A stretch of 57,988 nt of DNA from an uncultured Nitrospiraceae bacterium. GTDB lineage: Bacteria > Nitrospirota > Nitrospiria > Nitrospirales > UBA8639. The number at the start of each line of letters is the position of its first letter. Positions within the stretch are counted from its first letter, which is position 1. A program made the translations under genes and the position numbers. Below the pieces are notes generated by a model. It was given only the letters and a program-made list of their open reading frames with translations, made no database searches and was not told the origin of the DNA. The stretch spans positions 1 to 57,988 of the forward strand of contig CAZKRH010000172.1 in NCBI GenBank assembly GCA_964555115.1, in the 5' to 3' direction. This document shows, one piece after another, positions 4,847 through 54,858 of this stretch.

Positions 4847-6511
4847 TCATTGTACGTTGGTAGACTTATCATCCGGATGATTAGACCCTGCGGCCTCTGC
4901 CGCGTGTTTGAGGGCGTCCAGTCGTTCAGCGTACCGATGGCCTGGGCGAATCAATGACAGCACTCCCAACCCTTCTAACGCTTCGGTCACATGCGGTTGC
5001 ATCCCGACAAAAAAGAGATGTTGTTTATGGGCCCGAATGATGCGCAACATATCTTCAATTGCTAACGCCGCCGTCCCATCAATGATGGGCACGTCTGATA
5101 AATCCAGCACACAACTCGTAAACTTCTTGAGTCCCGGTACCGTTTCGATCCGTCGCACCATATTTTTGGCAGACCCAAAACTCATAGGACCATCCACATG
5201 AATGAGCACAATTTTTCCGGTGTTCCGCTCCAGAACGGCCTTTTCCTGCACGGTCAGAGGGGATTCTCCATGAATCTCGGTGATGATTTTCATGTTGGCC
5301 AATTCCAGATCAGCCATTTCTTTCACGAACAATAAACTGGCTAAGACCACTCCCACACCCACCGCAGTAATAAGATCGACCACCACCGTGATAAAAAGCA
5401 CGAGGGCCATGATCATCACATCCGCCCTCGGGGCTTGCAGGACATGACGTAAAAACCGCCAGTCAATAATTTCAATTCCTACTTTTAATAAAATCCCAGC
5501 CAAGACGGCCAGGGGAATTTGTTCCGCTAGAGGTCCCGCCCACAGTAAGGTGGCTAACAACATGAGCCCCATTAACGATCCGGACAACGGGGTCCGGCCC
5601 CCTGAACGAATATTGGCAACCGACCGAACGGTGGCTCCCGCTCCCGGTAATCCACCAAAGAGTCCTGCCACCATATTGCCAATACCCTGCCCTATCAGTT
5701 CACGATCGGAATTATGTTGCGTGCGGGTCATGTTGTCGCACACTAAGGACGTCAGAAGGCTATCAATCGCGCATAATAATGCAATGACACAGGCTTCCTC
5801 GATGATCACTGTCATAACATCAAATCGAAGGGTGGGCACAATCACCGACGGAAACCCCTGTGGTACAGCTCCAATCACCGGGGCGTTGGGGAAAAAAAAG
5901 ATGGCAGTCAGCGTCCCAATGATCAACGCCAACAATGGTGGCGGAACAATTTTTCCAATAACATTTGGGGTTCCGTACACGATGGCGAGTGTCAACAGTC
6001 CTAACGCCGCTGCATGAGACATGGGATCGGCAAAGAATGTTGGCAGAGCCCACAGATTGGGCATGACTCCTCCCTCTGCGGGATGCCCCAAGAGTGGTCC
6101 GATTTGCAAAATAATAATGATCACGCCAATGCCACTCATAAACCCAGAAATTACCGGATAGGGAATGAGGCTGACATAGCGCCCGACCCCCAACCAGCCC
6201 AATATCATTAATAACCCCCCAGCCAACATCACCGTTGTAAATACCAAGGCGGGTTCATCAGAAAATTGGGCAAGCATTCCCGCAAAGACCACGGTCATCG
6301 GGCCGGTGGGGCCAGAGGCTTGTGCGGGAGTCCCTCCAAACAGGGCTGCAAAGAATCCGACAAAGATGGCACCATAGAGTCCCGCTACCGCACCTGCCCC
6401 GGATGCCACACCAAATGCAAGAGCTAAGGGGAGCGCAATCACGGCAGCCACCACTCCGCCAAAGATATCCCCCCGGATATTATTGAAATGCAGCCCGTGA
6501 ATGAGTGTCAT
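4847..6511 (-). CDS. SulP/SLC26 family anion transporter with C-terminal STAS domain
   Basis: The N-terminal region is polytopic and Gly/Ala-rich, with typical SulP motifs (GGLPGAGATVRSVANIRSGGRTPLSG). A C-terminal STAS-like domain follows (IVLIHVDGPMSFGSA...). Confidence 0.9.
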   Translation of the reverse strand: MTLIHGLHFNNIRGDIFGGVVAAVIALPLALAFGVASGAGAVAGLYGAIFVGFFAALFGGTPAQASGPTGPMTVVFAGMLAQFSDEPALVFTTVMLAGGLLMILGWLGVGRYVSLIPYPVISGFMSGIGVIIIILQIGPLLGHPAEGGVMPNLWALPTFFADPMSHAAALGLLTLAIVYGTPNVIGKIVPPPLLALIIGTLTAIFFFPNAPVIGAVPQGFPSVIVPTLRFDVMTVIIEEACVIALLCAIDSLLTSLVCDNMTRTQHNSDRELIGQGIGNMVAGLFGGLPGAGATVRSVANIRSGGRTPLSGSLMGLMLLATLLWAGPLAEQIPLAVLAGILLKVGIEIIDWRFLRHVLQAPRADVMIMALVLFITVVVDLITAVGVGVVLASLLFVKEMADLELANMKIITEIHGESPLTVQEKAVLERNTGKIVLIHVDGPMSFGSAKNMVRRIETVPGLKKFTSCVLDLSDVPIIDGTAALAIEDMLRIIRAHKQHLFFVGMQPHVTEALEGLGVLSLIRPGHRYAERLDALKHAAEAAGSNHPDDKSTNVQ

Positions 6512-8837: not shown

Positions 8838-9064
8838 ATCCAACTATTGGATGCCCAACCACGAATTTTGTAACCAGAAAGATTTCTCTGGTTTTTGGTG
8901 AGCGCGGGACAAGAGGGAAGGGAGAGCCATGAAGGGGAAAATGAGACTTTCCCAACTATAGGTTCTTGGAGATGAAATCGCAGGCAAAATGGTGAAGGGA
9001 AAAAGATCGCATCAAATAATGATGTTCGCAATTATTCTTTTAATAGCCGGGAAAGGAACTACTC

Positions 9065-9436
9065 ATGAGCGATGAAAAAATCAGATATGCCCTTGGGGGA
9101 TCTGGGCAACTGTATAAATTTACCGGGAAAGACCTTCCAGCTGGAGCGGACCCCCTCATTGAGGAAGATGGCACGACGTTAACTGCTACCGGAAACCAAT
9201 ATTGTAAAACTCGTGGGATCGGTTTTCCCAATGCAGAAGTCCTTCGAGTGCTTTGCGACCAATATAGTTCGGCCACTCTCACCATGGCGGCTTCAGCCCA
9301 TGACCTCAATTTGGACTTAATGCCACAACGGCAAGACAAGACCAAAGAAATGTCAGAACGGTTGCGGTTGGATTGGGAAAAACAGGATAAGGCTTATAAA
9401 GAAAGCCAGGCCGCAAAAAAAATAAGTGCAGGTTGA
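9065..9436 (+). CDS. hypothetical protein
   Basis: The ORF is preceded by GGAAAGGAA and has a balanced composition with a charged C-terminal tail. Confidence 0.45.
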   Translation: MSDEKIRYALGGSGQLYKFTGKDLPAGADPLIEEDGTTLTATGNQYCKTRGIGFPNAEVLRVLCDQYSSATLTMAASAHDLNLDLMPQRQDKTKEMSERLRLDWEKQDKAYKESQAAKKISAG

Positions 9437-9619
9437 TCTCACACACTAATCACTGACGGTAGTTATTCGTGTATGGCTAGGCTGAGAGGGGTATGGCCTT
9501 TGAATACTAGAGAAGAGATTATGTAACATTGCCCTTCGGAAGGATTTCGCCTTGATCATCATGTATCTCTCTTTTTCCGGATACACTCCTATTCATCTTA
9601 TATGTAAAGGAAGCACTCC

Positions 9620-9718
9620 ATGAGTAAAGGTCTCAACCAAAAAAAAGACAGCAAGAAAAAACCTGCTAAAACGATGAAAGAGAAAAAGGCCGAGAAACGA
9701 TCTAAGAAAAATTCCTAA
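9620..9718 (+). CDS. unannotated 32-aa lysine-rich small ORF (MSKGLNQKKDSKKKPAKTMKEKKAEKRSKKNS)
   Basis: ATG at 9620 is preceded by AAGGAAG about 8 nt upstream, and TAA ends at 9718. The ORF is below the track's size cut-off. Confidence 0.3.
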   Translation: MSKGLNQKKDSKKKPAKTMKEKKAEKRSKKNS

Positions 9719-9765
9719 TCCTTTGGAGAGGAATATCCTCAAGTGATATCGTATGGCGGGACAGC

Positions 9766-10428
9766 CTATTCTGTTCCGACATTCGTCTCATCCCTTTCTT
9801 CATTTTTCCGTTCTGACACATCTACTACAAAACGATCTAGAATATGTGTTAAGGCTTGATTGAAGGCCATCACGGCTTCCGGGACTCCAGCGCCATTGGC
9901 CTGTTGCTCTTCGGTATACGTGTGCAACCAAAACGCTTCCCTCTCTCTCGTGTGAGTCAAGCCCAATTCCAGTTCTATCACGACTCGTGGTGACCCACCC
10001 AATACACGCTCCAGCTTCGCCATTCGGCAGGATAATACGTAGTCAGAATTCGTTCGGTGTTCGGGTATGACCACTTGCTCAGCAATGTTCGAAGCCCGAA
10101 GATACTTGGCGATTTCTTGTTGAAGGAGATTGGTTGGGGAATCAACCCATCGGTGATACGCATGACGATGGAGTTGGGCCGTTCCACTATCTTGGCGATA
10201 CACAATATGCCGTTCTCCTGTGAGCGCATCTGCCCAGGGTCGTAATATTTGCAAGGTTCCTTTTAAGGGTGGAACGTCTAATGAGGTGACTGGTGGCTGA
10301 AGCTCCAACCGGTAATAGTGATCTTGGGGTGCTGGCCCTCCACCCAAACACCCCTCTAACACCAGGAGGAGGATGGCCCCCACTAAAATTTTTCCATCCC
10401 ACCATCCCATCCACTTCACCCGACTCAT
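9766..10428 (-). CDS. ABC-transport auxiliary lipoprotein (PqiC/YmbA-like, DUF330)
   Basis: It has a lipobox (LLVLEGC) and a 'YYRLE' start to the mature domain. It overlaps the upstream MCE gene by 4 nt (ATGA). Confidence 0.7.
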   Translation of the reverse strand: MSRVKWMGWWDGKILVGAILLLVLEGCLGGGPAPQDHYYRLELQPPVTSLDVPPLKGTLQILRPWADALTGERHIVYRQDSGTAQLHRHAYHRWVDSPTNLLQQEIAKYLRASNIAEQVVIPEHRTNSDYVLSCRMAKLERVLGGSPRVVIELELGLTHTREREAFWLHTYTEEQQANGAGVPEAVMAFNQALTHILDRFVVDVSERKNEERDETNVGTE

Positions 10429-11369
10429 TTTGTGTCCGTCCCAATTTCTTCAGAAAATTGCCGGCCCCGAATAATCAGCCCAGGGTTCTGTCGAATTTCT
10501 GCGGTTAATTCATTCATGTTTCGCATCGTGGCTTCGAGGTTATAACTGATTTCTTGCACATGACTCGCGACAACTTCCAACGTGTGATGAAGATCTTTCA
10601 CCGAATGGTCAATATCTTTCCGATTCGTCTCCACCAGGGTATTCATGGATGCCAACAAGGAATCCAGACGTTGGCTCGTCTCACGAAATCCAACCGTGAG
10701 CGCTGAAATATTTTGTGAGGCGGTTTCCACATCACTCAGAATGTTATCGACACTTCCCTCAGTACGGTCTAACAGGCTATTCACTCGAACCGTCGTCTCA
10801 TTGAGTTGAACAGTGAAGGTTTTGAGATTGTCGAGTATAATTGGCGCATCCTCTCCTAAATCTTTCAGGGATCCTGTCCCCGCGGCCAAATTGTCTAATA
10901 ATGGTTTCAGACTGGTGTCACTCAACTCTCCTAATTTGTGTGCCAGCGCCGACATGGTCGTGAGAATGTTGGTTGTTACCAAACTTGGAATACGATCTCC
11001 AGGATTCAACATGTCTTTGGATTTCCCTTCACGAATATCGACCACCACGGCTGAAAGAAATCCTGCCTTGGTAATGATAGCGGTGGAGTCATCTGGGATA
11101 GGCCATCCTTCTTGAATCGAGACATTCACTCGATACACGGAAGATTCTGTCCCCCGCGCTAGCACAATACCTTCGATTTCTCCAACTGGAAACCCCTCAA
11201 AAAGAATTTGTCCTCCCTCCGTCAGGCCCATGACATTTTCAAATTCCAAATAATAGGCCTGCGTTCCTTGGGTTCCCCCCGACAACATGGTAAGCCAAAC
11301 CAGTAAAGCCCCCAAGAGACCCAATAAAAACGTCCCCACCACGATGTAATTTGTCCGAGAATCACGCAT
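10425..11369 (-). CDS. MCE-domain protein (MlaD-like) with long C-terminal helical extension
   Basis: An N-terminal TM anchor is followed by an MCE domain (YYLEFENVMGLTEGGQILFEGFPVGEIEGI) and about 180 aa of helical, coiled-coil-like sequence. Confidence 0.85.
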   Translation of the reverse strand: MRDSRTNYIVVGTFLLGLLGALLVWLTMLSGGTQGTQAYYLEFENVMGLTEGGQILFEGFPVGEIEGIVLARGTESSVYRVNVSIQEGWPIPDDSTAIITKAGFLSAVVVDIREGKSKDMLNPGDRIPSLVTTNILTTMSALAHKLGELSDTSLKPLLDNLAAGTGSLKDLGEDAPIILDNLKTFTVQLNETTVRVNSLLDRTEGSVDNILSDVETASQNISALTVGFRETSQRLDSLLASMNTLVETNRKDIDHSVKDLHHTLEVVASHVQEISYNLEATMRNMNELTAEIRQNPGLIIRGRQFSEEIGTDTK

Positions 11370-11397
11370 GGATATTTTCCCAGAATTGACCCGCTGT

Positions 11398-12222
11398 TTA
11401 TACGGCCTCTCCTGTTAATCGTGCAATATATTCATCGGGATCGAGTGTTTCTTCTTCAAATCGTCGGTTGAGTAAATCCTGGATCCGCTTATTATCCGAA
11501 GACCGAACTTCATCCACGGTCCCTATCGTCAGAATCTTCCCCTGATCCAATACGGTGATGCGGTCAGCAATTCTAAAGGCGCTCTCCAGTTCGTGGGTCA
11601 CTACCACAATAGTCATAGCTAACGCATCTCGTAATCGCAAAATGAGTTCATCCAATGATGACGAGACCACTGGATCCAACCCTGCAGACGGTTCATCACA
11701 AAATAGCAGCGCAGGATCCATAATGACCGCACGTGCAAAAGCTGCCCGCTTGAGCATGCCCCCGGATAATTCTGAAGGCATCAGGTTTTCAAATCCTGCA
11801 AGATTGACCACCTCCAATTTTAACCGGACCATGATCTCCATGGTTTTCTCATCGAGCTCGGTATGTTCCCGCAGAGGCAGCATGATATTTTCACCTACAG
11901 TCATGGAACTAAACAGGGCCCCACCTTGAAAGGCGACTCCCAATTTTCGGTAAAATTGATTGAGTGCCTGATCACTCATGCGGCCAATGTCTTGCCCCAA
12001 AAGAGAAATACACCCCGACGTGGCCCGCTCCAACCCAATGAGATGTCGTAAGAGGGTGCTCTTTCCAGATCCACTGCCCCCCATCACCACCATAATCTCA
12101 CCTTTTCGCACTGTGAGACTGATACCCTGGAGAATTTGTCGGGACCCATAATGCGTCACGAGATCTGTGACGGCTATCACCGAGTCCTGAGCGGTCATTG
12201 GGTCTATGATCTCTTCCTTCAT
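11398..12222 (-). CDS. ABC transporter ATP-binding protein (MlaF-like)
   Basis: Walker A GGSGSGKST, signature LSGGMLKR and Walker B LLFCDEPSAGLD are all present. Confidence 0.9.
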   Translation of the reverse strand: MKEEIIDPMTAQDSVIAVTDLVTHYGSRQILQGISLTVRKGEIMVVMGGSGSGKSTLLRHLIGLERATSGCISLLGQDIGRMSDQALNQFYRKLGVAFQGGALFSSMTVGENIMLPLREHTELDEKTMEIMVRLKLEVVNLAGFENLMPSELSGGMLKRAAFARAVIMDPALLFCDEPSAGLDPVVSSSLDELILRLRDALAMTIVVVTHELESAFRIADRITVLDQGKILTIGTVDEVRSSDNKRIQDLLNRRFEEETLDPDEYIARLTGEAV

Positions 12223-13061
12223 CTCGTCATCATAAATACCACCACTAAATCAGCCAAAATAATCGCCAAGATGGAATGGACGACCGCATTGGTCGTGACT
12301 CGCCCGACCCCCTCAGCCCCGCCGGTCACCGAAGCTCCATTGACCACACCCACAAGAGTAATGAGGGTTCCAAACACCACACTCTTTCCTAATCCATGCC
12401 ACACATCATGGGTATCCAAAATCTGGGTGGTTTGATTCACAAAGGTGCCAAAGGTCATACCGAGATCGGACGTGATATACATACCCGCCCCAAAGAGCGC
12501 GATAAAATCCGACCATAATGTCAGAGCCGGTAACATGACCATCATGGCCAACAAACTTGGCACGACTAAAAACCGAACAGGATTAATGCCCATGATTCGT
12601 AAGGCATCTACTTCATTGTTGATCGTCATCGTACTCAAGCGCGCGGCTAATGCCGATCCCGATCGACCTGCCACTAAAATTCCGGTGATGAGTGGAGCAA
12701 ATTCCCTCACCACCGACAGAGCCACTCCCAAGGTGACCTGGTGTTCGGCCCCAAAATCTTTCAGCGCATCAATCCCTTGGATGGCCAACATGAGGCCAAT
12801 GGTCAGTGACACAACAGAAATAATGGGAATCGCCCGAATCCCCACTTCCATCATTTGAGTAAAAACCGGAGCCAGCCGAACTGGTTGGTGCTGGCGCCGA
12901 CCCACTACGATCCAATATCCAGCTTGGTAGAACAGGATGGTGCCAAACCCTACGGACTCGATCCATCGAGTGGCCCCCCGACCAAGCGATTCAACTATTC
13001 CCAAGACCGAATGAGAAGACTGATCAGGATTCGGCATTAAAGACACTTTCCACGTTTTCAT
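12219..13061 (-). CDS. ABC transporter permease (MlaE family)
   Basis: This is a polytopic permease with MlaE-type motifs (REFAPLITGILVAGRSGSALAA...EVDALR). It overlaps mlaF by 4 nt. Confidence 0.9.
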   Translation of the reverse strand: MKTWKVSLMPNPDQSSHSVLGIVESLGRGATRWIESVGFGTILFYQAGYWIVVGRRQHQPVRLAPVFTQMMEVGIRAIPIISVVSLTIGLMLAIQGIDALKDFGAEHQVTLGVALSVVREFAPLITGILVAGRSGSALAARLSTMTINNEVDALRIMGINPVRFLVVPSLLAMMVMLPALTLWSDFIALFGAGMYITSDLGMTFGTFVNQTTQILDTHDVWHGLGKSVVFGTLITLVGVVNGASVTGGAEGVGRVTTNAVVHSILAIILADLVVVFMMTR

Positions 13062-13356
13062 AAAAGGTAAAGACTTTATCCAGTCTCGCCAAATTCAACA
13101 CGCGCAACACGGCGGGATTGACATTCACTAAGGCAAACTCCACTCCCTTTTTTTTGGCTTTTTGATACGCCTCCACGAGACTCGCAATACCAGAGCTATC
13201 CATATAGGGTACTGCCGAGAGCTCCACCAGTACAGGCTTTCCCCGATCAACCACCTCCAGCAACACCTTCCTGACTTTTGGTGAATTTTCTAAGTCAATT
13301 TCCCCACTCAACGCCACAATCTGCTTTCCACGATCTTCTGTAATTTGATGTTTCAT
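13024..13356 (-). CDS. STAS-domain protein (SpoIIAA/RsbV-type anti-sigma antagonist fold; possible MlaB equivalent)
   Basis: The conserved phospho-acceptor motif is present (VPYMDSSGIASL). ATG at 13356 is preceded by GGAGCCGGAAG; the track's TTG start at 13377 is less likely. The 3' end overlaps the MlaE ORF. Confidence 0.85.
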   Translation of the reverse strand: MKHQITEDRGKQIVALSGEIDLENSPKVRKVLLEVVDRGKPVLVELSAVPYMDSSGIASLVEAYQKAKKKGVEFALVNVNPAVLRVLNLARLDKVFTFYENVESVFNAES

Positions 13357-13389
13357 AAGATTGTCTTCCGGCTCCAAGAAATTAGGCTA

Positions 13390-13570
13390 AGGACCTGAGA
13401 GAAAATAACTTGGACATCTCGCATCCAATCTTCGGGCCATCTTTGAACGGGCCTCAATCGAAACACCCTCACCATAGTTGTGCTATGCCTCCGGTCTTTC
13501 TCAATCGTTCCGTCCAAATCCGACCCAAATCTTGGCGCAATATTGTCCAAGTTATTTTCTCTCAGGTCCT
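13390..13570 (+). mobile_element. MITE family 1, copy 1 (181 bp, perfect 26-bp TIR AGGACCTGAGAGAAAATAACTTGGAC)
   Basis: The terminal inverted repeats are read directly from the sequence. A second copy in inverted orientation lies at 35188..35368. Confidence 0.85.
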
Positions 13571-13992
13571 AAGTGCTTCACCATCTGTAACACGTTTCCG
13601 ATTCCCTCCGGGGGTGGGCCCATAGACACCTCATCCATGACCTGTTGAATGAAATGGCAACCCAACCCTCCAGGGCGCAGGTCTTCCAAATCTCGAGTCT
13701 TCATGCAATCCTTACCTACATTTGGGCCATAATCCCGCAACATAATCACCAACGTATTGTCCCTCTGATAGATGTGCAATACGATCAGGTCATCTGTTTC
13801 TCCTTGATAGGCATGTCGAATGATATTTTGACAAGCTTCATCAATGGCCAACACAATATCCTCAACCGAAATTGACGAACATATCCCTTGCCCTAAGGCT
13901 TTTCGAACGAGGGACCGTGTTTCACACAATTCCTTGGCGCGCGCCTGGAATTGATGATTAACCAATAGAGGGTGGTCTAAAGGGACATCCAT
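13552..13992 (-). CDS. RsbW/SpoIIAB-like serine protein kinase (HATPase_c_2)
   Basis: The N-box (EACQNIIRHAY), G1 (RDYGPN) and G2 (GGLGCHF) motifs are present. The real start is the ATG at 13992 (MDVPLDH); the upstream part of track ORF 13552..14136 is MITE sequence. The last codons and the stop lie inside MITE family 1. Confidence 0.8.
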   Translation of the reverse strand: MDVPLDHPLLVNHQFQARAKELCETRSLVRKALGQGICSSISVEDIVLAIDEACQNIIRHAYQGETDDLIVLHIYQRDNTLVIMLRDYGPNVGKDCMKTRDLEDLRPGGLGCHFIQQVMDEVSMGPPPEGIGNVLQMVKHLGPERK

Positions 13993-14014
13993 GTTTTTCT
14001 CAATGTTCTTTGTT

Positions 14015-14196
14015 GGGACTATTGAAAAAGACGGCCAGTATCGCTCCCATAAATTTGTCGCTCGTTTCTTGTTGTTCGTGTTTTGTGATTTTGCACCTCT
14101 TCTTTTATCTAGCAACGAGAGACGAGCAACGAGCAACCATTCTCATGTTTTCTCTCAATTTGGCTTTGCTGGACCAGCCTATTTGAACAGTCCCTG
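14015..14196 (-). mobile_element. MITE family 2, divergent copy
   Basis: The termini are GGGACTATTGAAAAAGACGGCC and TATTTGAACAGTCCCTG. The core 'CTAGCAACGAGAGACGAGCAACGAGCAAC' is shared with the copies at 15608 and 35429. Confidence 0.7.
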
Positions 14197-14244
14197 GTTC
14201 TGCCTGAGGACTACCGCAAGGCTTCCCCATCACTTTGAGCAGAC

Positions 14245-15504
14245 TTATTTGAACTCAACGGATAGAATCGACAGATCATCATGAATCTGATTTGTTTCTG
14301 TCCAATCCAGTACCGAGTTCACAATTGAATTGACACTGTCCTGTAATCCTTCAGGTTGATGATCCTGAATGGTGGAACGCAGCCGTGCTTCACTAAAGAT
14401 TTTGCGTTCTGGATTCATCGCTTCCAGCACCCCGTCTGAATACAAATACACTCGAGCTCCAGGCTCCAACACAATCGTATTTTCTGTATAAGTCTCATCT
14501 TCGAAGAGCCCAATGGGTAAACTTGGCGCGTCACACAATTGTGCCTGTTGGCCAGGGCTCAACAGAATGGGAGGAGGATGCCCGGCACAGACATAGGTAA
14601 ACCTTCGGTTTTCGGTATCAAGAATCCCATAAATCAAGGTGAAATATTGTTGAGTGTCTTCCGTCATTGGGAACATGTGGTTGAGTCTGGTGGCCACCTC
14701 GGCAGGAGGCACCAAGGTGCCTCCTGCTTCCGACGTAAACAAGCACGAAGGATCCCGTCTTGGTATCAATACACGACTGAGGGTCACAGATAATAACGAT
14801 GCGGGAACACCATGACCGGTTACATCTAACACATACATCCCGATATGGTGTTCATCGAGTTGAAAGACATTTAACGAATCTCCCCCGAGTTCGGCACACG
14901 GGCGATAAACCCATCCAAAAGTCACACCCGGACTGGCTGGAAGGGTGTCTGGTAAAAGAGCCTGCTGGACTCGGGCTGCCGCCGCTAAGTCCTTTCGCAT
15001 GTGCTCATTCGCAATTTCTGTTTGAACCATGGCTGCACACAACGCCTCTTCCGTCCGTTTGCGTTCCACCACTTCTAGTTGAAGGTCCGATATCGTTTCC
15101 TCTAATTGCACTTGAAGACTGCGTATTTTTAAATGCGTCGTCACACGAACCAACACCTCTTCAAGTTGAAGAGGTTTCGTCACATAATCCACTGCCCCAT
15201 ACGCAAACCCTTTCACTGTACTGACCGAATCTGTCAGGGCCGTCATAAAAATGACCGGGGTATCTTTGGTGTGCTCCATTTCCTTAAACCGGCGACAGGT
15301 TTCAAACCCATCCATACCTGGCATCATAATATCCAAGAGAATAATATCTGGTTGAACGAGTTGGCTTTGCTCTAAGGCCGTTTCCCCATCAGGAGCCACC
15401 ATGAGTTCAAACCCATAAGCTGAAAAACTTTCAACTAACACTTCCAGATTCGTCGGAGAATCGTCGACCAGGAGAATCACTCCCAGGTTTGTGGATGATG
15501 CCAT
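14245..15504 (-). CDS. response-regulator receiver fused to PP2C (SpoIIE/RsbU-type) phosphatase
   Basis: The receiver domain is clear (ILLVDDSPTNLEVL...DIILLDIMMPGMDGFE). A coiled linker leads to a PP2C domain (GGDSLNVF...YVLDVTGHGVPASL...LYSDGVLEA). Confidence 0.9.
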   Translation of the reverse strand: MASSTNLGVILLVDDSPTNLEVLVESFSAYGFELMVAPDGETALEQSQLVQPDIILLDIMMPGMDGFETCRRFKEMEHTKDTPVIFMTALTDSVSTVKGFAYGAVDYVTKPLQLEEVLVRVTTHLKIRSLQVQLEETISDLQLEVVERKRTEEALCAAMVQTEIANEHMRKDLAAAARVQQALLPDTLPASPGVTFGWVYRPCAELGGDSLNVFQLDEHHIGMYVLDVTGHGVPASLLSVTLSRVLIPRRDPSCLFTSEAGGTLVPPAEVATRLNHMFPMTEDTQQYFTLIYGILDTENRRFTYVCAGHPPPILLSPGQQAQLCDAPSLPIGLFEDETYTENTIVLEPGARVYLYSDGVLEAMNPERKIFSEARLRSTIQDHQPEGLQDSVNSIVNSVLDWTETNQIHDDLSILSVEFK

Positions 15505-15607
15505 GTTCTGCTCATTCTCTCCTACGGAAAATTTCTATTCAGGTTCTGTGGAAAAAATCTACAATAGTAGGTTAGTCCTGATCCACATCCTAAAACGACA
15601 GAATGTG

Positions 15608-15779
15608 CAGGGACTGTTCAAAAAGGCCGCACAAACAGAAAACATAGGATTTGTTGCTCGTTGCTCGTCTCTCGCTGCTGGAAAAATAAGAAGTGCAAGA
15701 TCCTAAAATACTAGCGACCAGGAACGAGCAACGAGCGACTAACCAAGAAACGCCGCTAGCGGCTTTTTTCAACAGTCCC
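15608..15779 (+). mobile_element. MITE family 2, reference copy
   Basis: The termini are CAGGGACTGTTCAAAAAGGCCGC and GCGGCTTTTTTCAACAGTCCC. The internal inverted repeat is GCTCGTTGCTCGT / ACGAGCAACGAGC. Confidence 0.8.
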
Positions 15780-16008
15780 ATTCAAATTATTACGTAAGCC
15801 TGTCCTTGTGGCAAATACTTCTAGAAGGGGAACTGGGCTCATCTTAGTGGTCTCAAGACCCCACACCTTATACCGACTGGTTGGATTTAAATCTCTCCCT
15901 GCTGGCACACGGCAAAACCTGCCCAATTGGACACATCCTATCGATGTCAGAAAGGGAAAATACCAAAAAGGAGTTGAACGGAGAAGAGGGAACAGGGATG
16001 GGTGAAAA

Positions 16009-16521
16009 TTAAAAACCGGTTCCGATTCCAATGCCCCCGCCAAGACCTAGGCCAATTCCAAACCCTTGTTCTTGCTGAGCGGATTGAGGTTCCCACACAT
16101 GGAGGTGTTTAATCACTAAGGAAGGATAGGCATATTCCACCTCATCGACATTGCCGAGAACAGTCCCCGTCACCTCACCGACAATCGTGACTCGTGGATT
16201 TCCTGAGAATGTGGCTGGATCAAGAAAGCTTTTTTCGAGTGCCAGAAAACGACCTTGAGAGGAGGTCCGTTGAACAGCCGGCATCCGGCTATCATCTAAA
16301 GGCAACTGTAACACCTGGAGTCGGGTCCCCTCTTGTTGTCTTTTGGCTGACAGAACTTCCCCACCCACGACCACCGTTTTCCCTATATAGGAATCGGGAT
16401 TTTGTAACAGTTCGGGAAAGGTCACCGTTTTATCAATTTGAGCATCTAATGTTTTTGGGATGTCCGCACCGGGGGACGCACATCCCGAAAGAAGGACCAA
16501 GCCCAACAATAACCACCTCAT
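16009..16521 (-). CDS. Slp/YeaY family outer-membrane lipoprotein
   Basis: It has a lipobox (LLSGC) and the family pattern 'YIGKTVVVGGEVLS...LQLPLDDSRMP...SQGRFLA...DPATFSGNPRVTIVGEV'. The tail is Gly-rich. Confidence 0.7.
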   Translation of the reverse strand: MRWLLLGLVLLSGCASPGADIPKTLDAQIDKTVTFPELLQNPDSYIGKTVVVGGEVLSAKRQQEGTRLQVLQLPLDDSRMPAVQRTSSQGRFLALEKSFLDPATFSGNPRVTIVGEVTGTVLGNVDEVEYAYPSLVIKHLHVWEPQSAQQEQGFGIGLGLGGGIGIGTGF

Positions 16522-16666
16522 GGTTCGGTGATATCACATATCTGTACTGTACCATAGAATGGTCAATCGACAAATTACGGAAATTTTCTTTCGTTCATTG
16601 ATCGTTGAGTCACCATGAACGTTTCCGAAATATCCCGGAACTCTGAAAAAGGAACAGGTGATCGGA

Positions 16667-17839
16667 CTAGGAGACCGTTTTGGCTTCCGAGGGAGGGGAA
16701 ATCGTGGAGACGGCTTCTTTCAGGGCCCGTTCCGATCCCAATAACAAGGCAATCCACCGCGTTTCTGTTTTACTTTCCAAGGCTATTTTCACCACCATCG
16801 TCAAGGGAACGGACAGGATCATCCCCACGGGTCCCCAGACCCAACCCCAAAACACGAGTGACAGAAATACTGTGAGGGTTGAAAGGCCCAATCGTTGGCC
16901 CATAATCTTGGGTTCAATCACATTTCCAAACACAATATTAATGACCACATACCCTGCGGCCACCATCAAGGCTCTGCCGAGGCCAAATTGAATAAAGGCT
17001 AATAGCACCGCTGGTGTCCCAGCAATAATTGATCCCAAGTTGGGAATGTAATTTAATAAAAACGCCAGGACTCCCCACAGCACAGGAAAATCAACACCCA
17101 GAACCGCTACCCATATCCCCACCGTAAGTCCAGTGCCGATACTGACCACTGTCTTAATGGCCAAAAAATGCTGAACGTCATGGGTAAAATTAGTGAAATT
17201 GGACAATGAATCTTTCCCCTCTCCCCAAACCACTTGTATCTTTTTTGTAAACGAACAGGCTTCCACCAACATAAAAATGACTGTGAGGAAGATCAAAAAC
17301 ATATTCGTAAAAATTTCCCCCAACCCTTTGAGCATATTGGCACCCAATGTCATGGCAGCCCCAGGATCCACAAATTCCGCCAATCTATCAGTTGAAACCT
17401 CAATTCCACTACTTTGGAGCCAAGTCAAGACTGAACCCATTTCCTCATGAAGCCGTGCCTGATACCGAGGAACGGCCTCAGAAAAATCATTGACCGACGT
17501 GCCAATCATGGCTCCAATCCCCACACCTATTCCGACAACCCCTAACATGACTATGAGAACCGCGACACCAGAGGGAATTCCTTTTCCTTCCAACCAAAAG
17601 ACAGGTGCCGCACAAATCACTGCTAAAAAAACCGATAACAGGAGCGGCACTAAAATAGAATCTGCGGCCCGCATTCCCGCTACGACCACCACCAGCCATC
17701 CCAACGTGGTTAGCACTGGCAACCCTGCACCTTTATTCAACATTTCTGCCATAGGCCTCCCGGCATTTACCTCTCTTATTGGCGCCGTTCCATACGATTT
17801 CTGATTTGAACCGCCCACCTTTTGAGATGGATCTTCCAT
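16667..17839 (-). CDS. AI-2E family transporter (PerM/YhhT, UPF0118)
   Basis: It has the polytopic architecture and the C-terminal motif 'LNYIPNLGSIIAGTPAVLLA...GNVIEPKIMGQRLGLSTLTVFLSLVFWGWVWGPVGMILSVPLT'. Confidence 0.85.
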   Translation of the reverse strand: MEDPSQKVGGSNQKSYGTAPIREVNAGRPMAEMLNKGAGLPVLTTLGWLVVVVAGMRAADSILVPLLLSVFLAVICAAPVFWLEGKGIPSGVAVLIVMLGVVGIGVGIGAMIGTSVNDFSEAVPRYQARLHEEMGSVLTWLQSSGIEVSTDRLAEFVDPGAAMTLGANMLKGLGEIFTNMFLIFLTVIFMLVEACSFTKKIQVVWGEGKDSLSNFTNFTHDVQHFLAIKTVVSIGTGLTVGIWVAVLGVDFPVLWGVLAFLLNYIPNLGSIIAGTPAVLLAFIQFGLGRALMVAAGYVVINIVFGNVIEPKIMGQRLGLSTLTVFLSLVFWGWVWGPVGMILSVPLTMVVKIALESKTETRWIALLLGSERALKEAVSTISPPSEAKTVS

Positions 17840-30758: not shown

Positions 30759-31139
30759 TTAGTGGGCCAACGCCTGAGCGACGGCTGAAATAATTTCACC
30801 AAAGTTTGGGGGTTTTTCTAATACGGCACGTGCACCTGCCCGAAGCGCCCGGTCTCTTTCAGCCATGCTTAGGTCTCCTGTAAAGAAGATGACTGGGGGA
30901 TTCTTTCCACCTTTTTCTGCTAACTTTTCCAAGAATTCCACGCCATTGAGAACAGGCATTCGATTGTCAGTAATCACTAAATCAAAATGTTCATGCTCTA
31001 AATATTCCAAAGCCTCCGCACCGTTTTCGGCTTCTTTGCAATGATAGCCCTGCGATTCTAATACCGCACGAAGCGTGCTTCTTACAGCCACTTCATCATC
31101 AACCAGGAGCACCTCTCCTCTTGGTACGTTCTCTTCCAT
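30759..31139 (-). CDS. single-domain response regulator (CheY-like)
   Basis: The receiver motifs LLVDDE, DLVITDNRMP and the K in LEKP are present. There is no output domain. It is a paralog of 45610..46002. Confidence 0.85.
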   Translation of the reverse strand: MEENVPRGEVLLVDDEVAVRSTLRAVLESQGYHCKEAENGAEALEYLEHEHFDLVITDNRMPVLNGVEFLEKLAEKGGKNPPVIFFTGDLSMAERDRALRAGARAVLEKPPNFGEIISAVAQALAH

Positions 31140-31506
31140 GCTTTGGTTCCCCCCTAAAGAGGCCTTTGACGTGAATTAGGCTCATTCTCCTATTTGTTGC
31201 CCCATCAGCGTCAATAACCCAAAAGAGGGGGTACCCCCCCCTACATTCCGGAAGGCTTGTGGTTGGAATTTGGCCTTAATAGCCAACTATTTCAAAAAAA
31301 CCAGGGGAGGTGGTGGTCCTTGGATGCCTTTGTGAGGAAAATCTGAAGTTTCAAGGAAGGCGACACATTAAAAGGAACAAGGGTATGGAAGGGGTTCATC
31401 CTGAGAGCAGGAAAAGCAGACCGCTCTCATGCCGGTTTTTTTGCCAAAAGACCGAAATGACAACAGCAGACAGAAGCTCATACAGAGCAGGAAAATTTCT
31501 AGCCCC

Positions 31507-32391
31507 CTAAAGTTGTTCGTTGGAAGATCGGCGCAGGGAACTGGCTAACCCCATGAAGGAGAGGGTATAGATTAACCATTTGGACGGATCAAAATTGTAC
31601 CAGCGTGGGCCATTTCGGTAATCACTTTGATACATGTGATGGTAATTATGGTACCCCTCACCGAACGTAAGAAGAGAAACAAACCAACTATCTCTACTTG
31701 AATCTTGGGTACCATGGGGTTGGTTTCCCCAAATATGGCAGACTGAATTGATACAAAATGTAGAATTCAAGACGAAAAAGGTTCGGCCTAACCCGGCCAA
31801 CAGAAAACATCCCAGTCCGCCTATCCAGCCGTCGTACATAAACCCAATAAAAAATGGCAAAATGAGCCCGGATAGAATAATGGGCACGTAATATTTATCT
31901 TGCCACATCACAACGGGATCTTGTTTCAGACGGGACGCATACTTTTCATCCTTATGAGGATCCTTCCAAAATAGCCACCCACAATGGCTATACCAAAAGC
32001 CCAACTTGGCATTGTAGGGATCTTCTTCCTGATCACAGCGTGCATGATGTCGAATGTGATCAGCAGCCCACTTAAGGACTGAATTTTCCAAGGCTAGCCC
32101 ACCTGCAATCAGTAAGATTCGCTTGACCCAATCAGGACAATTAAAACTCCGATGGGCGCACAGCCTATGGTATCCCACGGTAATTCCTAAACCCGAACAG
32201 ATATAGAGAAAGACAAACAGGCTCCAATCGACCCATGAATAGTCATAGAAGTAGGCAAACATTGGTAATCCAATTATGGCCCCTACATTCACAAGAGAAA
32301 ATAAAATGGTTGTTAGATAAGCAAATGGTCTTTCCGGGACAGCTTCCCCAGACAACGAATCAGTGGTCATAATCTCAATTCCTCTTCCCAA
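31507..32391 (-). CDS. acyl-CoA/acyl-lipid delta-9-type fatty acid desaturase
   Basis: Three His boxes are present (HRLCAHR, HIRHHA, HNYHH), with TM pairs. Confidence 0.9.
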   Translation of the reverse strand: MGRGIEIMTTDSLSGEAVPERPFAYLTTILFSLVNVGAIIGLPMFAYFYDYSWVDWSLFVFLYICSGLGITVGYHRLCAHRSFNCPDWVKRILLIAGGLALENSVLKWAADHIRHHARCDQEEDPYNAKLGFWYSHCGWLFWKDPHKDEKYASRLKQDPVVMWQDKYYVPIILSGLILPFFIGFMYDGWIGGLGCFLLAGLGRTFFVLNSTFCINSVCHIWGNQPHGTQDSSRDSWFVSLLTFGEGYHNYHHMYQSDYRNGPRWYNFDPSKWLIYTLSFMGLASSLRRSSNEQL

Positions 32392-32949
32392 CTATACCGT
32401 TACAATTAAATAAATTTCTTGGTCAATGCCCATTATCCTCAGGGGTATTCCTATCCCCATTTTTTTCCCTTACCTTTGTGTTTCGGCATCTTCCCAAGAC
32501 TATTGATTCCAGGCCACATGACTGAGAACCTGAACCTGTCTCCCATAGCCTATCACCTGTCTATTTGGAATCCCTCGTTTTAGATTAGGTGAAGTTTTGG
32601 GAAGATATCACGATTTTTCTTAAGGTAAGTCCTTTTAGAATACCTTGGAGCATGTTGATTGTAAAGTCAAAAGATCTTTGGTGCTTTCTTTTTCTCCTTA
32701 ACTTTCCTAGGTTGAACTACTCTTTTCTTACACTCCATCCGGGTATATACAACACTATTTCCGACTAGACTGCCCGAGATATCTGTTCAATCACCTAAGG
32801 TATTTAACGAGGGTCCCTTGTTCAACATTAACATTTCCCCAAAATGGGTCTAAGGCAAGGGGGAGCTCGGGAAAAGCCAACGTGAAACTCTCCTCAGTCC
32901 AGTTGGCTCGGTTCAGCCATCCACCTGACACTTTCCACGAGATAATCAT

Positions 32950-35130: not shown

Positions 35131-35187
35131 TTTTGAACCAACCTCATCACCGTGAACATGTGCGGATTCAAACCAATAGCCCGCCTT

Positions 35188-35368
35188 AGGACCTGAGAGA
35201 AAATAACTTGGACCATATCGCGCCAAGAATTGGGTCGGATTTGGACAGAACGATTGAGAAAAACCCGAGGCATAACACAGCTATGGTGAGGGTATTTCGA
35301 TTGAGGCCCGGTCAAAGATGGCCCGAAGATTGGATGCGAGATGTCCAAATTATTTTCTCTCAGGTCCT
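35188..35368 (-). mobile_element. MITE family 1, copy 2 (inverted relative to copy 1)
   Basis: It has the same 26-bp TIRs (one mismatch). By eye it shows roughly a dozen mismatches over 181 bp against the reverse complement of copy 1. Confidence 0.85.
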
Positions 35369-35428
35369 TAGGAGAGGATATTATGAGCTAATCTTAAAAA
35401 AGAGGCCACCAAAAATGATTCTCCTATT

Positions 35429-35599
35429 GGCCTGTTGAAAAAATCCACAATGGCGTGCTCTGAGTTAGTCGCTGGTTGCTCGTTGCTGGTCGCTAGTATT
35501 TTAGGATCTTGCACTTCCTATTTTTCTAGCAACGAGAGACGAGCAACAAGCTACAAATCCCATGTTTTCTGTTTATGTGGCCTTGTTGAACCGTCCCTG
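35429..35599 (-). mobile_element. MITE family 2 copy
   Basis: Its reverse complement aligns along its whole length with 15608..15779 (CAGGGACGGTTCAACAAGGCC ... GGATTTTTTCAACAGG). Confidence 0.75.
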
Positions 35600-35871
35600 T
35601 TCCTTCCGCATTTTTAAATCTTGTGTTAATCCAACCTGCTATCGAGGAAAATTTTTGTTATTCCGCAACTTCCCCTTTTAAAAAACAGGAGTCCCCAGAA
35701 TATCGCCACTGACATGGCAAATCTACCGCATTCGAACTTATATTTTCCGTGATAGATCGAGGAACTTTGAGGAGGAGAGAAAAACGAGAAAGGATTTATT
35801 AAAAAATCGGTGACCTGCCCTGCTTACACACATTACATGGGAGGCCACCGATTTATTCCCTTCTCAAAGAA

Positions 35872-47210: not shown

Positions 47211-47423
47211 GCTGTGGAAATTTTACCCTGACCCAAAAACCTTGATACTGATCAATGACCTCAGGACTGCAAAAGACGATATCAGTCCTTACTGATGATA
47301 TGATGTTTTTGACTACAGGACCTAGAACACAGATGTAAGGATCCTATTAGGACCCGTTGAATAATTAAAAATTCCCTCGGTAGCAGGTTGGTCCTGATAG
47401 ACACCCTCAAACACTAGAAGAAA

Positions 47424-47590
47424 CAGGGACTGTTCAAAAAGGCTGCTTTCTCACCCGCCCAACCCCGGTGTGCCAAAACACACCTTTCCACGGGCAAGGC
47501 CGCAAGCAGCAAGAAGGGCGGGGCGTACACAGGGATACGTTGAGCCCTTCGAGCAATGAGAACGCAGCTGTCGGCTTTTTTCAACAGTCC
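47424..47590 (+). mobile_element. MITE family 2 variant (same termini, different GC-rich interior)
   Basis: The termini are CAGGGACTGTTCAAAAAGGCTGC and GTCGGCTTTTTTCAACAGTCCCT. The interior (CACCCGCCC ... GGGCGGGGCG) is unrelated to the other copies. Confidence 0.7.
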
Positions 47591-47607
47591 CTTTGTTGGA
47601 GAGACCT

Positions 47608-53631: not shown

Positions 53632-53633
53632 GG

Positions 53634-54679: not shown

Positions 54680-54858
54680 GGAAGCGTTCAACACAAAGGC
54701 CCTGCCCAGCTGGTCGCATTTTAGAAAACCCGGAACTTGTCGCTAGTCGCTTGTTGCTAAGAAAAAAGGAAGTCAAGATCCTAAAAAACTAGCGACAAGG
54801 ATCGAGCAACGAGCGACTATCCCAAGAAACACCTTTGGCGGCTTTTTTCAACAGTTTC
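54680..54858 (+). mobile_element. MITE family 2 copy
   Basis: The sequence GGAAGCGTTCAACACAAAGGCC ... CGAGCAACGAGCGACTATCCCAAGAAACACCTTTGGCGGCTTTTTTCAACAGTT aligns with 15608..15779. It abuts the stop codon of 54859..55251. Confidence 0.7.

Follow-up and report, generated by a model that had tools for sequence, protein, structure and literature searches.

The seven genes on the minus strand at positions 9766-15504 of the window (the whole 57,988-nt stretch analysed, a contig of an uncultured Nitrospiraceae bacterium) appear rather likely to form one unit, in which a trans-envelope Mla/Pqi-type MCE transporter would be combined with a detachable, MlaB-like STAS protein under a dedicated phospho-switch. 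MlaE would be the permease of the transporter and MlaF its ATPase, joined by a long-needle MCE protein and, at the outer membrane, a PqiC-like lipoprotein. The STAS subunit in the cytoplasm is proposed to correspond to E. coli MlaB and to the permease-fused STAS domain of Brucella MpcE (PMC12436622); here it would have been freed as a separate protein that can be phosphorylated and that has a kinase and a phosphatase of its own.

All seven open reading frames reported in an earlier sequence-only reading were recovered, and Pfam and NCBIfam matches agree with their labels. From the 5' end they encode a REC-PP2C/SpoIIE-family serine phosphatase (14245-15504, 419 aa; Pfam Response_reg 4.6e-27, SpoIIE 2.1e-45), an RsbW/SpoIIAB-like serine kinase (13552-13992, 146 aa; Pfam HATPase_c_2 6.8e-23), a single-domain STAS protein (13024-13356, 110 aa; Pfam STAS 2.1e-26, TIGR00377 91.6 bits), an MlaE-type ABC permease (12219-13037, 272 aa; Pfam MlaE 9.6e-70), an MlaF-type ABC ATPase (11398-12222, 274 aa; best NCBIfam match MlaF, 9.4e-59), an MCE protein with an MlaD domain (10425-11369, 314 aa; Pfam MlaD 7.5e-12, residues 36-115) and a PqiC-like transport-auxiliary lipoprotein (9766-10428, 220 aa; Pfam ABC_trans_aux PF03886 1e-10). 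The 4-nt overlaps of MlaE with MlaF (12219-12222) and of MlaD with the lipoprotein gene (10425-10428) stand as first described, and the STAS stop codon (13024-13026) does fall within mlaE. The 38-nt STAS/mlaE overlap that follows from the longest mlaE reading frame, which begins at 13061, probably does not: since the closest MlaE homologs are 272 aa long, translation probably begins with the ATG at 13037, giving an overlap of 14 nt, and this -14 junction was found again in relatives. A profile scan covering 47 of the 56 ORFs in the window that reach 100 aa found no sigma factor, MlaC or MlaA, in agreement with what had been claimed for the first two; the other nine ORFs are short or recognisably different. 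A terminator-like hairpin with a T-run (9649-9668, minus strand; consensus scan) lies about 100 nt past the lipoprotein gene, the last of the operon. It hints weakly at a possible operon end; terminator-like sites in the region are as numerous as in shuffled background.

Both large spacers of the operon, 252 nt between the PP2C and kinase genes and 195 nt between the kinase and STAS genes, are repeat insertions. A repeat search placed in the latter a MITE-like element of 187 nt with 29-nt terminal inverted repeats (13387-13573), from which the final codons and stop of the kinase gene are derived. An inverted copy, 94% identical, is located at 35185-35371, and the 25-nt core of the terminal repeat occurs four times, against zero occurrences expected by chance. 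As RNA, the element is predicted to form a hairpin with a folding energy of -111.9 kcal/mol (z = -10.2). Another repeat family was found by the same search between the PP2C and kinase genes (14104-14175), with a related copy in the operon leader (15591-15781) and further copies at 35521-35592 and 35426-35616 (families D2, I2 and I3). The MITE is missing in relatives, whose kinase-STAS spacers measure 20-30 nt. The seven genes of the present genome would be co-transcribed across the MITEs. The MITE hairpins separate the signalling genes from the STAS-mla genes in this genome and could uncouple their expression.

Conservation of the gene order outside this genome, on which the earlier proposal chiefly depended, was found in several phyla. 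At least 592 relatives were present in a collection holding one genome per species, and the best 80 loci, all from species-level genomes, were analysed. Kinase, STAS and MlaE genes are adjacent in all 80 of these best loci, with the kinase upstream of STAS and STAS directly 5' of MlaE each time; PP2C adjoins them in 77 of the 80. Among the same best 80 of at least 592, the STAS gene always abuts or overlaps mlaE, and in most loci the MCE gene is still followed by the lipoprotein gene. The hosts are Nitrospirales, Myxococcota, Rhodospirillales and Gammaproteobacteria, together with single bins from other phyla, and the order PP2C, kinase, STAS, MlaE, MlaF, MCE, lipoprotein is conserved across several phyla; in the relatives the genes overlap or lie close together (junctions from -4 to about +30 nt). 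The same unit appears in independent gene calls for Roseospirillum parvum and for a Nitrospirales genome of 4.36 Mb. Judged by gene order, the arrangement is far beyond chance, because it was found again in 80 of 80 related loci. The presence of DSSG in all 80 STAS proteins and the floor of STAS identity are partly circular figures, because the retrieval pattern itself included DSSG. In the best 80 of at least 592 loci, the 10 kb flanking the unit on each side contain no further conserved gene family, and hence none for a sigma factor, MlaC or MlaA; a sigma factor of any kind was found within that distance in none of the 80.

A gammaproteobacterial variant adds to this picture. Here the same module, with STAS and MlaF of the same subfamily, is attached to a shuttle-type, canonical MlaE/D/A/C system with a short MlaD; the MlaF gene is divergently placed, its product being 67% identical to the MlaF of the window, and the system has no second MlaB. 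By this comparison, the module goes with STAS, MlaE and MlaF rather than with the periplasmic parts.

By sequence and fold, the STAS protein is a classical RsbV/SpoIIAA-type protein and not an MlaB equivalog. Its score against TIGR00377, 'anti-sigma factor antagonist', exceeds the cutoff of 53 bits, whereas it reaches 23 bits with the NCBIfam model mlaB_1, whose cutoff is 90. The top Foldseek matches of its AF2 model (pLDDT 94.7) are TM1442, RsbV and SpoIIAA (TM 0.83-0.90), MlaB reaching 0.62-0.68. Fused STAS domains are no nearer to the protein than SpoIIAA is. The motif YMDSSG, noticed earlier, is read in the translation, the phospho-acceptor motif being D53-S54-S55-G56, and Thr52 of E. coli MlaB aligns with Ser54. 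Thr52 lies in the middle of the contact surface with MlaF, and the substitution T52E weakens MlaF binding (PMC7367683). Conservation, when mapped onto the structure, peaks at the loop of the phospho-site together with helix alpha2, and at the ARLDKVF element; these parts form the partner-binding face. The suggestion that this protein is the MlaB equivalent is supported by gene position, by the Thr52/Ser54 alignment and by the MlaF tail, and not by sequence and fold, which are closer to RsbV, SpoIIAA and TM1442. To our knowledge, control by phosphorylation has been proposed for E. coli MlaB and never shown.

The best solved relatives of MlaE and of MlaF alike are the proteins of P. aeruginosa, A. 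baumannii and E. coli. The next-nearest relatives of MlaE (37-45% identity) are STAS-MlaE fusions, a STAS domain being present in 9 of 10 tested, and the free STAS gene occupies the place of this permease-fused domain. The one fused operon examined in its context is without kinase and PP2C. MlaF retains the LSGGM signature and carries a conserved C-terminal extension (...LLNRRFEEETLDPDEYIARLTGEAV); this tail is conserved across phyla and absent from two fused-type MlaFs. Its Tyr and Leu align with Tyr261 and Leu265 of E. coli MlaF, which dock at the MlaF-MlaB groove; they are invariant in nine aligned MlaFs and kept in nearly all of the approximately 67 tails listed. In the MCE protein, an N-terminal membrane anchor precedes the MlaD domain, behind which lie some 180 aa of helical C-terminal tail; Brucella MpcD and P. 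aeruginosa PA3213 are built alike. Matches of the tail to coiled-coil models and to the PqiB C-terminus are weak, and one ortholog carries a Helical_needle annotation, marked faint. This protein is a probable periplasm-spanning needle, and the lipoprotein probably forms the outer-membrane end of the bridge.

On the signalling side, the REC-PP2C protein is proposed to be both the signal input and the phosphatase of phosphorylated STAS. Its receiver domain retains the DD...D...T...K residues, and the metal-binding motifs GGD, DVTGHG, SDG and HDD of the PP2C domain are read in the translation. Orthologs with 60-66% identity occupy the same position in Nitrospirales, whereas elsewhere the position is taken by a GAF-PP2C protein, often a single GAF-PP2C-kinase fusion. 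The receiver domain, named earlier as the input, can accordingly be so regarded for Nitrospirales only; in other phyla a GAF domain takes its place. The RsbW-like protein is the proposed STAS kinase. RsbW and SpoIIAB are its best solved relatives, and its N-box DEACQNIIRHAY and G2 box GGLG are conserved, the G1 box being partly degenerate. In many loci the kinase is fused to PP2C.

Fused REC-PP2C-kinase proteins can also serve as anti-sigma factors whose target sigma factor is encoded at another locus, such as Shewanella CrsR with RpoS, and regulation of sigma factors in trans is generally known. A classical anti-sigma switch, in which the kinase would sequester such a distant sigma factor, STAS would be only the antagonist and the mla genes would be co-transcribed as part of the same envelope-stress response, agrees with the RsbV- and RsbW-type matches of STAS and kinase. 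We nevertheless consider it unlikely: neither the window nor the 10-kb flanks of the best 80 of at least 592 loci contain a sigma factor, STAS invariably touches mlaE at the position of the permease-fused domain of sister clades, the module remains with STAS, MlaE and MlaF where the rest of the transporter differs, and MlaF keeps the E. coli-like tail that docks at the STAS groove.

Co-evolution was analysed by partial Mantel tests, in which STAS is coupled to PP2C (0.39), MlaF (0.31) and the kinase (0.22), each with p = 0.001, and not to MlaE, MlaD or the lipoprotein, and the kinase is coupled to MlaF (0.20, p = 0.002-0.004); such mirror-tree values are noisy, the known MlaE-MlaF contact having been missed (0.04) and a PP2C-MlaD value of 0.37 being without explanation. 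The kinase-MlaF coupling would suit a kinase that itself binds and inhibits MlaF until captured by unphosphorylated STAS, which would then be a regulator and not a subunit. This scheme keeps the canonical logic of the kinase as effector-binding protein, and the order kinase, STAS, transporter is equally compatible with it. It seems quite improbable, however, as STAS proteins are the MlaF binders in all characterised Mla systems, sister transporters have STAS and not the kinase fused to the permease, STAS-MlaF coupling exceeds that of kinase and MlaF, and a kinase that in many genomes is covalently part of a large GAF-PP2C protein does not readily suit the stoichiometric inhibition of a membrane ATPase. 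A constitutive MlaB-like STAS subunit, with kinase and phosphatase acting on an unlinked substrate or setting STAS stability and turnover, would fit E. coli MlaB, which works without any known kinase (PMC7367683), and the Ser/Thr common at this position in STAS domains, including kinase-less fused ones, but is very unlikely given the kinase beside STAS in 80 and PP2C in 77 of the best 80 of at least 592 loci, the DSSG that is strict here and degenerate in kinase-less fused forms, and the coupling of STAS to PP2C and kinase.

The phospho-switch on the transporter was favoured by all tests that were run and contradicted by none, the evidence being comparative. From it we infer Ser54 phosphorylation, STAS-MlaF binding, the active phospho-state, and the substrate and direction of transport. 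Unphosphorylated STAS would bind the helical subdomain and the C-terminal tail of MlaF and stabilise the MlaF dimer on MlaE, and transport would be on. Phosphorylation by the RsbW-like kinase of Ser54, within the STAS-MlaF interface, would release STAS, leaving the ATPase uncoupled or lost from the complex. Activation of the sensor domain, a receiver in Nitrospirales and GAF elsewhere, would cause PP2C to reverse this phosphorylation. The searchable literature contains no earlier description of a phospho-switch module joined to an Mla/MCE-type transporter, as had been supposed. Because the arrangement is conserved across several phyla without a sigma factor, the motor of this transporter is probably phospho-switched; if this is true, it would be turned on and off by phosphorylation.

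The seven-gene run that the sequence-only reading described on the minus strand was recovered with every open reading frame in place and every label backed by Pfam and NCBIfam. It is headed by a protein with Response_reg and SpoIIE/PP2C domains (14245-15504), followed by an RsbW/SpoIIAB-like kinase (13552-13992; Pfam HATPase_c_2, 6.8e-23), for which catalysis is predicted; its N-box and G2 box are conserved and its G1 box is partly degenerate. The third gene encodes the STAS protein (13024-13356; STAS, 2.1e-26), in which the phospho-acceptor motif YMDSSG is present as described; its sequence is 99% identical to a protein annotated 'Nitrospirae bacterium'. The transporter genes follow: an MlaE permease (longest ORF 12219-13061; PF02405, 9.6e-70), an ABC ATPase whose top family match is MlaF (11398-12222), an MlaD/MCE domain protein with a helical tail of about 180 aa (10425-11369), and a PqiC-like lipoprotein of the ABC_trans_aux family (PF03886; 9766-10428). 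MlaE scored 208.6 bits against TIGR00056, just below the cutoff of 212.2, and its top solved relatives are MlaE. The ATPase is MlaF-type rather than an MlaF equivalog, because it reached 198.9 bits against a cutoff of 441 in the NCBIfam equivalog model. Bridging by a hexameric MCE needle to a ring of outer-membrane lipoprotein is suggested here by two features, domain content and helical-tail length, and the assembly is putative.

The 4-nt overlaps of MlaE with MlaF and of the MCE protein with the lipoprotein are real. The STAS stop codon does lie inside mlaE; since the closest MlaE homologs are 272 aa long, the mlaE start is probably the ATG at 13037 and the overlap probably 14 nt, a junction that recurs in relatives. 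Junctions in the relatives range from -4 to about +30 nt. Both long spacers of the operon are repeat insertions. One is a 187-nt MITE with 29-nt terminal inverted repeats (13387-13573), which has an inverted, 94% identical copy at 35185-35371. This element provides the last kinase codons and the stop; the kinase is otherwise full length, and damage to it was ruled out, as it differs from its orthologs in the final few residues alone. The other insertion belongs to a second, looser family of intergenic repeats of about 70-190 nt (14104-14175, 15591-15781, 35426-35616, 47381-47446 and 54762-54822), with copies in the spacer between the PP2C and kinase genes and in the operon leader; at 35185-35616 a copy adjoins the other MITE copy. 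As RNA, the MITE is predicted to form a hairpin of -112 kcal/mol (z = -10), and an Rfam scan of the operon and leader gave a single sub-threshold match to a miRNA hairpin, located in the MITE. Relatives lack this MITE between the kinase and STAS genes, and a 4.36-Mb Nitrospirales relative has spacers of 22-33 nt and no MITEs. The hairpin may alter operon expression in the window genome. A promoter and terminator scan of 9000-16500 gave counts equal to the shuffled background, which says nothing on internal promoters.

Neither a sigma factor nor MlaC, both reported missing by the sequence-only reading, was found among the 47 of 56 window ORFs of at least 100 aa that were scanned, and the same set contained no MlaA. 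PADLOC assigned the component proteins to no known defence system, giving only generic ATPase, receiver and coiled-coil matches. Several other genes of the window were recorded. An AsmA/DUF748-like protein adjoins a DUF2062 protein on the minus strand (51838-54152); AsmA-like proteins are a further class implicated in inter-membrane lipid transport. A protein at 47593-48690 joins a TackOD1 'thaumarchaeal output domain' to GGDEF, an unusual pairing for a bacterial genome, and a 432-aa minus-strand ORF (1446-2744) had no Pfam match at E <= 1e-4.

Conservation of the gene order was examined in a one-genome-per-species collection, which was searched with an alignment of diverse STAS homologs and yielded at least 592 confirmed relatives. 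The best 80 were kept with 10-kb flanks, their ORFs were extracted, and tblastn was run with the seven window proteins. Gene order outside this genome had been named beforehand as one of the points on which the proposal could fall, and it was found conserved in these best 80 loci, across several phyla. Among them, the kinase gene lies directly upstream of the STAS gene in 80/80 and an MlaE-type permease directly downstream in 80/80, so that chance adjacency was ruled out. A PP2C gene precedes the kinase in 77 of the 80. Of the remaining three, L016 is cut by a contig edge, L002 has a run of N on the junction, and in L057 no PP2C could be detected. Wherever the contig extends, MlaF, the MCE protein and the lipoprotein come next, a gammaproteobacterial variant excepted. 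In L002, a Nitrospirota 'chromosome', the N run (9403-9600) falls exactly at the kinase 5' junction, with nusA and infB beyond and no PP2C found; similar runs occur at intervals of about 3 kb, a pattern that points to masking or scaffolding, not biology.

By label, Alphaproteobacteria, mostly Rhodospirillales, form the majority of the 80 loci, alongside Nitrospirales (8), Myxococcota/'Deltaproteobacteria' (9) and Gammaproteobacteria (8). Single bins labelled Opitutales, Spirochaetales and Marinimicrobia were given little weight because the labels of metagenome bins can be wrong. The unit is also present in cultured Roseospirillum parvum and in the 4.36-Mb Nitrospirales genome, as seen in independent gene calls with precomputed Pfam matches. 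All ORFs in the 10-kb flanks of the 80 loci were clustered, and no further conserved family emerged; the other clusters consisted of lineage-specific cytochrome-oxidase genes and spurious antisense ORFs. Thus, the conserved unit is exactly the seven genes, with no sigma factor. That these genes form one conserved functional unit without a sigma factor encoded alongside is a conclusion held with much greater confidence than the mechanism proposed below. Directly upstream of the operon in the window, on the same minus strand, are genes for a Slp-family outer-membrane lipoprotein and an AI-2E-family transporter (16009-17839), which are conserved with the operon in none of the best 80 of the at least 592 related loci. 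A hidden sigma factor in the neighbourhood was also considered and rejected: the sole Sigma70_r4 match seen was in R. parvum, where it stems from the HTH of an upstream LuxR/GerE-type response regulator.

We propose that the products form a trans-envelope MCE transporter of Mla-Pqi type, like Brucella Mpc and Pseudomonas aeruginosa PA3211-3214, with a detachable STAS subunit. Unphosphorylated STAS would bind MlaF at its helical subdomain, along with the tail of the adjacent MlaF, and would thereby stabilise the MlaF dimer on MlaE. Phosphorylation by the kinase of Ser54, the serine of the YMDSSG motif, would occur within the STAS-MlaF interface and release STAS; the PP2C phosphatase would restore binding once its sensor domain is activated. 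As in classical partner switches, the kinase is assumed to be active by default and the phosphatase to be the regulated input. The polarity of the switch rests on analogy with E. coli, namely its need for MlaB and the effect of T52E. There, MlaB is required for association of MlaF with MlaED, Thr52 is central in the MlaF interface, and T52E weakens MlaF binding; Kolich (2020) states that there is no evidence of MlaB phosphorylation, and leaves open whether, and by which enzymes, MlaB is phosphoregulated (PMC7367683). The idea of a partner switch with lipid transport as its output gained strong comparative support from the present analysis, and the full mechanism, in which STAS-MlaF binding would be switched by Ser54 phosphorylation, is judged somewhat more likely than not.

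The sequence-only reading took the STAS protein as the MlaB equivalent. Position and context bear this out, and sequence does not: against the MlaB equivalog model the protein scored 23.1 bits where the cutoff is 90, and against TIGR00377, a model of the anti-sigma-antagonist superfamily, it passed with 91.6 bits (cutoff 53). Among PDB sequences, the E-values were about 4e-3 for MlaB and 5e-15 for TM1442. The AF2 model (pLDDT 94.7) gave Foldseek TM scores of 0.83-0.90 to TM1442, RsbV and SpoIIAA, and 0.62-0.68 to MlaB. The protein is therefore a classical STAS, predicted to be phosphorylatable, in the MlaB position. A second, unrelated STAS domain occurs in the window at the C-terminus of a SulP-family anion transporter (4847-6511, minus strand).

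HMMER was run with MlaE against the full library. Past the close homologs, which are unfused, the relatives at 37-45% identity were mostly proteins of 355-418 aa, in which the MlaE match begins at about residue 100-165. Nine of the ten long relatives tested carry an N-terminal STAS domain. The free STAS gene, directly 5' of mlaE and overlapping it, occupies the same position as the fused domain. Among fused-type operons, the one whose context was read (STAS-MlaE, ABC, MlaD, ABC_trans_aux) has no kinase or phosphatase. Sequence similarity was rejected as a guide to the origin of the free STAS, which is no nearer to the fused domains (at most 37 bits) than to SpoIIAA (33 bits, with an approximate query); the score against E. 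coli MlaB was 21 bits.

The sensory input is exchangeable. The receiver on the phosphatase, which had been read as the input, is present in the Nitrospirales, and elsewhere a GAF domain stands in its place; in many genomes GAF, PP2C and kinase make up a single protein of 580-620 aa. Partner-switch phosphatases typically exchange their sensor domains in this way while the PP2C is conserved. A cluster at 30759-35226 on the minus strand of the window encodes a 7TM-GAF-HisKA-HATPase histidine kinase (32950-35226), a fatty-acid desaturase (31507-32391) and a stand-alone receiver (30759-31139); in theme it is similar to DesK/DesR-type sensing of the membrane state. This histidine kinase could be a candidate partner for the REC-PP2C protein; the cluster is not conserved beside the operon elsewhere.

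In seven gammaproteobacterial loci, a shuttle-type Mla system with MlaE, a 148-aa MlaD, MlaA and MlaC is directly preceded by genes for a fused GAF-PP2C-kinase and STAS. MlaC and MlaA are absent from most of the 80 loci and present in this variant only. Its MlaF gene is divergent, with a product 65-68% identical to the window MlaF and bearing the same C-terminal tail, and no second STAS or MlaB gene was found at the locus. The signalling module thus accompanies STAS and the cytoplasmic MlaE/MlaF core whatever the periplasmic machinery, as expected if the cytoplasmic part of the transporter is the target. In one locus of this variant (L047), a gene for Rsd/AlgQ, a sigma-70 regulator, lies about 1 kb past the divergent mlaF (15217-15672), which is probably lineage-specific synteny.

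A classical anti-sigma switch whose sigma factor is encoded elsewhere is possible in principle, and Shewanella CrsR with RpoS offers a precedent for a sigma factor in trans. Such a switch, however, leaves three observations unexplained, namely that the STAS gene always abuts mlaE, that sister clades have a permease-fused STAS, and that the module follows MlaE/MlaF into another transporter architecture; we regard it as improbable. A second alternative, in which the kinase rather than STAS binds MlaF, is somewhat less probable still, being contrary to every characterised Mla system and to the STAS-permease fusions.

The reading of STAS as the MlaB equivalent is also supported by the ATPase. The window MlaF carries the Mla-specific LSGGM signature, and its C-terminal tail, ...LLNRRxEExxLDPDEYLxRLTG, is kept across all phyla sampled. 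A Tyr and a Leu of this tail, invariant among the MlaFs aligned, coincide in position with E. coli MlaF Tyr261 and Leu265, which in the MlaF2B2 crystal structure insert in the groove between MlaF and MlaB (PMC7367683). The DPDEYLxRLTG tail is present in every MlaF of the free-STAS family and absent from two fused-type MlaFs (L085, 3731-4543; L087, 1475-2296), which hints, with two fused examples, that a predicted docking tail accompanies the detachable STAS. Co-evolution was analysed by mirror tree and partial Mantel test with 44 complete loci and the window. The strongest couplings were two known contacts, MlaE-MlaD (0.46) and MCE-lipoprotein (0.39). In the partial Mantel test, STAS was coupled to PP2C (0.39), MlaF (0.31) and the kinase (0.22), each with a permutation p of 0.001, and in the same 44 loci and window no coupling to MlaE, MlaD or the lipoprotein was found. 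The mirror tree was counted as suggestive only, because it missed the known MlaE-MlaF contact (0.04) and gave a PP2C-MlaD value for which there is no explanation.

The phospho-site was compared between the free and fused forms. Thr52 of E. coli MlaB aligns with Ser54 of the DSSG motif. DSSG is present in 80/80 loci, and STAS conservation peaks at the phospho-site loop with helix alpha2 and at the ARLDKVF element after alpha3; both results are partly circular because the retrieval patterns contained the motifs, and the statistics for DSSG and for STAS identity were discounted on that ground. The conserved face is the helical face that MlaB uses for MlaF and SpoIIAA for its kinase. In the fused, kinase-less STAS domains the site is degenerate (DSAG, DSVG, DTAG or none). 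The contrast between the strict DSSG and these degenerate sites is consistent with selection on the serine in systems that have the enzymes. A constitutive STAS, with kinase and phosphatase acting elsewhere, is the least probable alternative, being contrary to the retained enzymes and the strict motif.

For the family as a whole, we lean slightly towards the view that, in several phyla, Mla/MCE transporters would have their ATPase engaged and released by a detachable STAS under a dedicated kinase and phosphatase, with exchangeable REC or GAF sensors. E. coli MlaFEDB, which Thong is said to have described in 2016 with its STAS subunit MlaB, shares with the window system MlaE, an MlaF with LSGGM and the tail Tyr and Leu, an MCE subunit, and a small free STAS in the operon with Thr52 at the position of Ser54. 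In E. coli, however, there is no kinase or phosphatase for MlaB, whose site is a degenerate DTGG and whose gene is last in the operon. The periplasmic route differs as well: E. coli relies on soluble MlaC and outer-membrane MlaA, the window system on a PqiC-like lipoprotein and, probably, a long needle formed by the MCE protein. Closer in architecture are Brucella abortus Mpc (PMC12436622) and P. aeruginosa PA3211-PA3214 (PMC13631591), with the same order of permease, ATPase, MCE protein and PqiC-like lipoprotein; the MCE protein has a helical needle and a length of about 310-330 aa, and both MlaC and MlaA are missing. In Brucella MpcE the permease carries an N-terminal, fused STAS domain that is called homologous to MlaB (PMC12436622), whereas MlaE of the window type is 272-280 aa long without a STAS domain, and the STAS is separate, with a strict DSSG and two dedicated enzymes.

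With RsbU/RsbV/RsbW and SpoIIE/SpoIIAA/SpoIIAB of Bacillus, the module shares three protein families, the phospho-acceptor motif, a sensory domain on the PP2C, and the STAS fold (TM 0.83-0.87 to RsbV and SpoIIAA). Unlike in those switches, none of the 80 loci encodes a sigma factor in cis, and what is conserved downstream is an ABC transporter; thus, the proposed output would be post-translational control of transport, not of transcription. Among other partner switches, HsbR/HsbA of P. aeruginosa and CrsR/CrsA of Shewanella involve REC-PP2C-kinase fusions, and SypE/SypA of Vibrio is also partner-switch-like. Their targets are FlgM or a diguanylate cyclase, RpoS and a Syp target, respectively, and in Anabaena the target is a glycosyltransferase. 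We know of no involvement of an ABC transporter or of lipid trafficking in any of the HsbR, CrsR, SypE or HenR modules. Many members of the present family likewise have sensor, PP2C and kinase on one polypeptide, as in HsbR and CrsR, and the output of all these modules is the phospho-state of a STAS domain; the GAF or REC input sets the present family apart. A 2026 report on Anabaena HenR and its STAS-glycosyltransferase provides a precedent for a STAS phospho-switch acting directly on an enzyme (PMC13555669).

No description of this wiring was found in open-access full text and bioRxiv preprints; mention elsewhere is possible. In these sources, STAS phosphorylation was joined to MlaF by Kolich (2020) alone, who put the link forward hypothetically, for E. 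coli (PMC7367683). The system is not a new category, because partner-switch-like modules with outputs other than sigma factors, such as SypE/SypA and Anabaena HenR, and STAS subunits of Mla transporters were already known.

To our knowledge, post-translational regulation of phospholipid traffic between the two bacterial membranes is essentially unknown. The operon family places beside the transporter the enzymes that were missing for STAS phosphoregulation. If the proposal is true, this would be the first natural case of the MlaB phosphoregulation suggested in 2020, and also the first partner switch to act on an ABC transporter, and through it on lipid traffic in the envelope, rather than on transcription. 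The family is tractable, being present in hundreds of species (at least 592 relatives), including cultured Roseospirillum parvum. An evolutionary route is also suggested, in which the permease-fused STAS would be a constitutive form and the free STAS with its kinase and phosphatase a switchable one. The REC and GAF domains on the phosphatase suggest what kinds of signal tune lipid homeostasis of the outer membrane.
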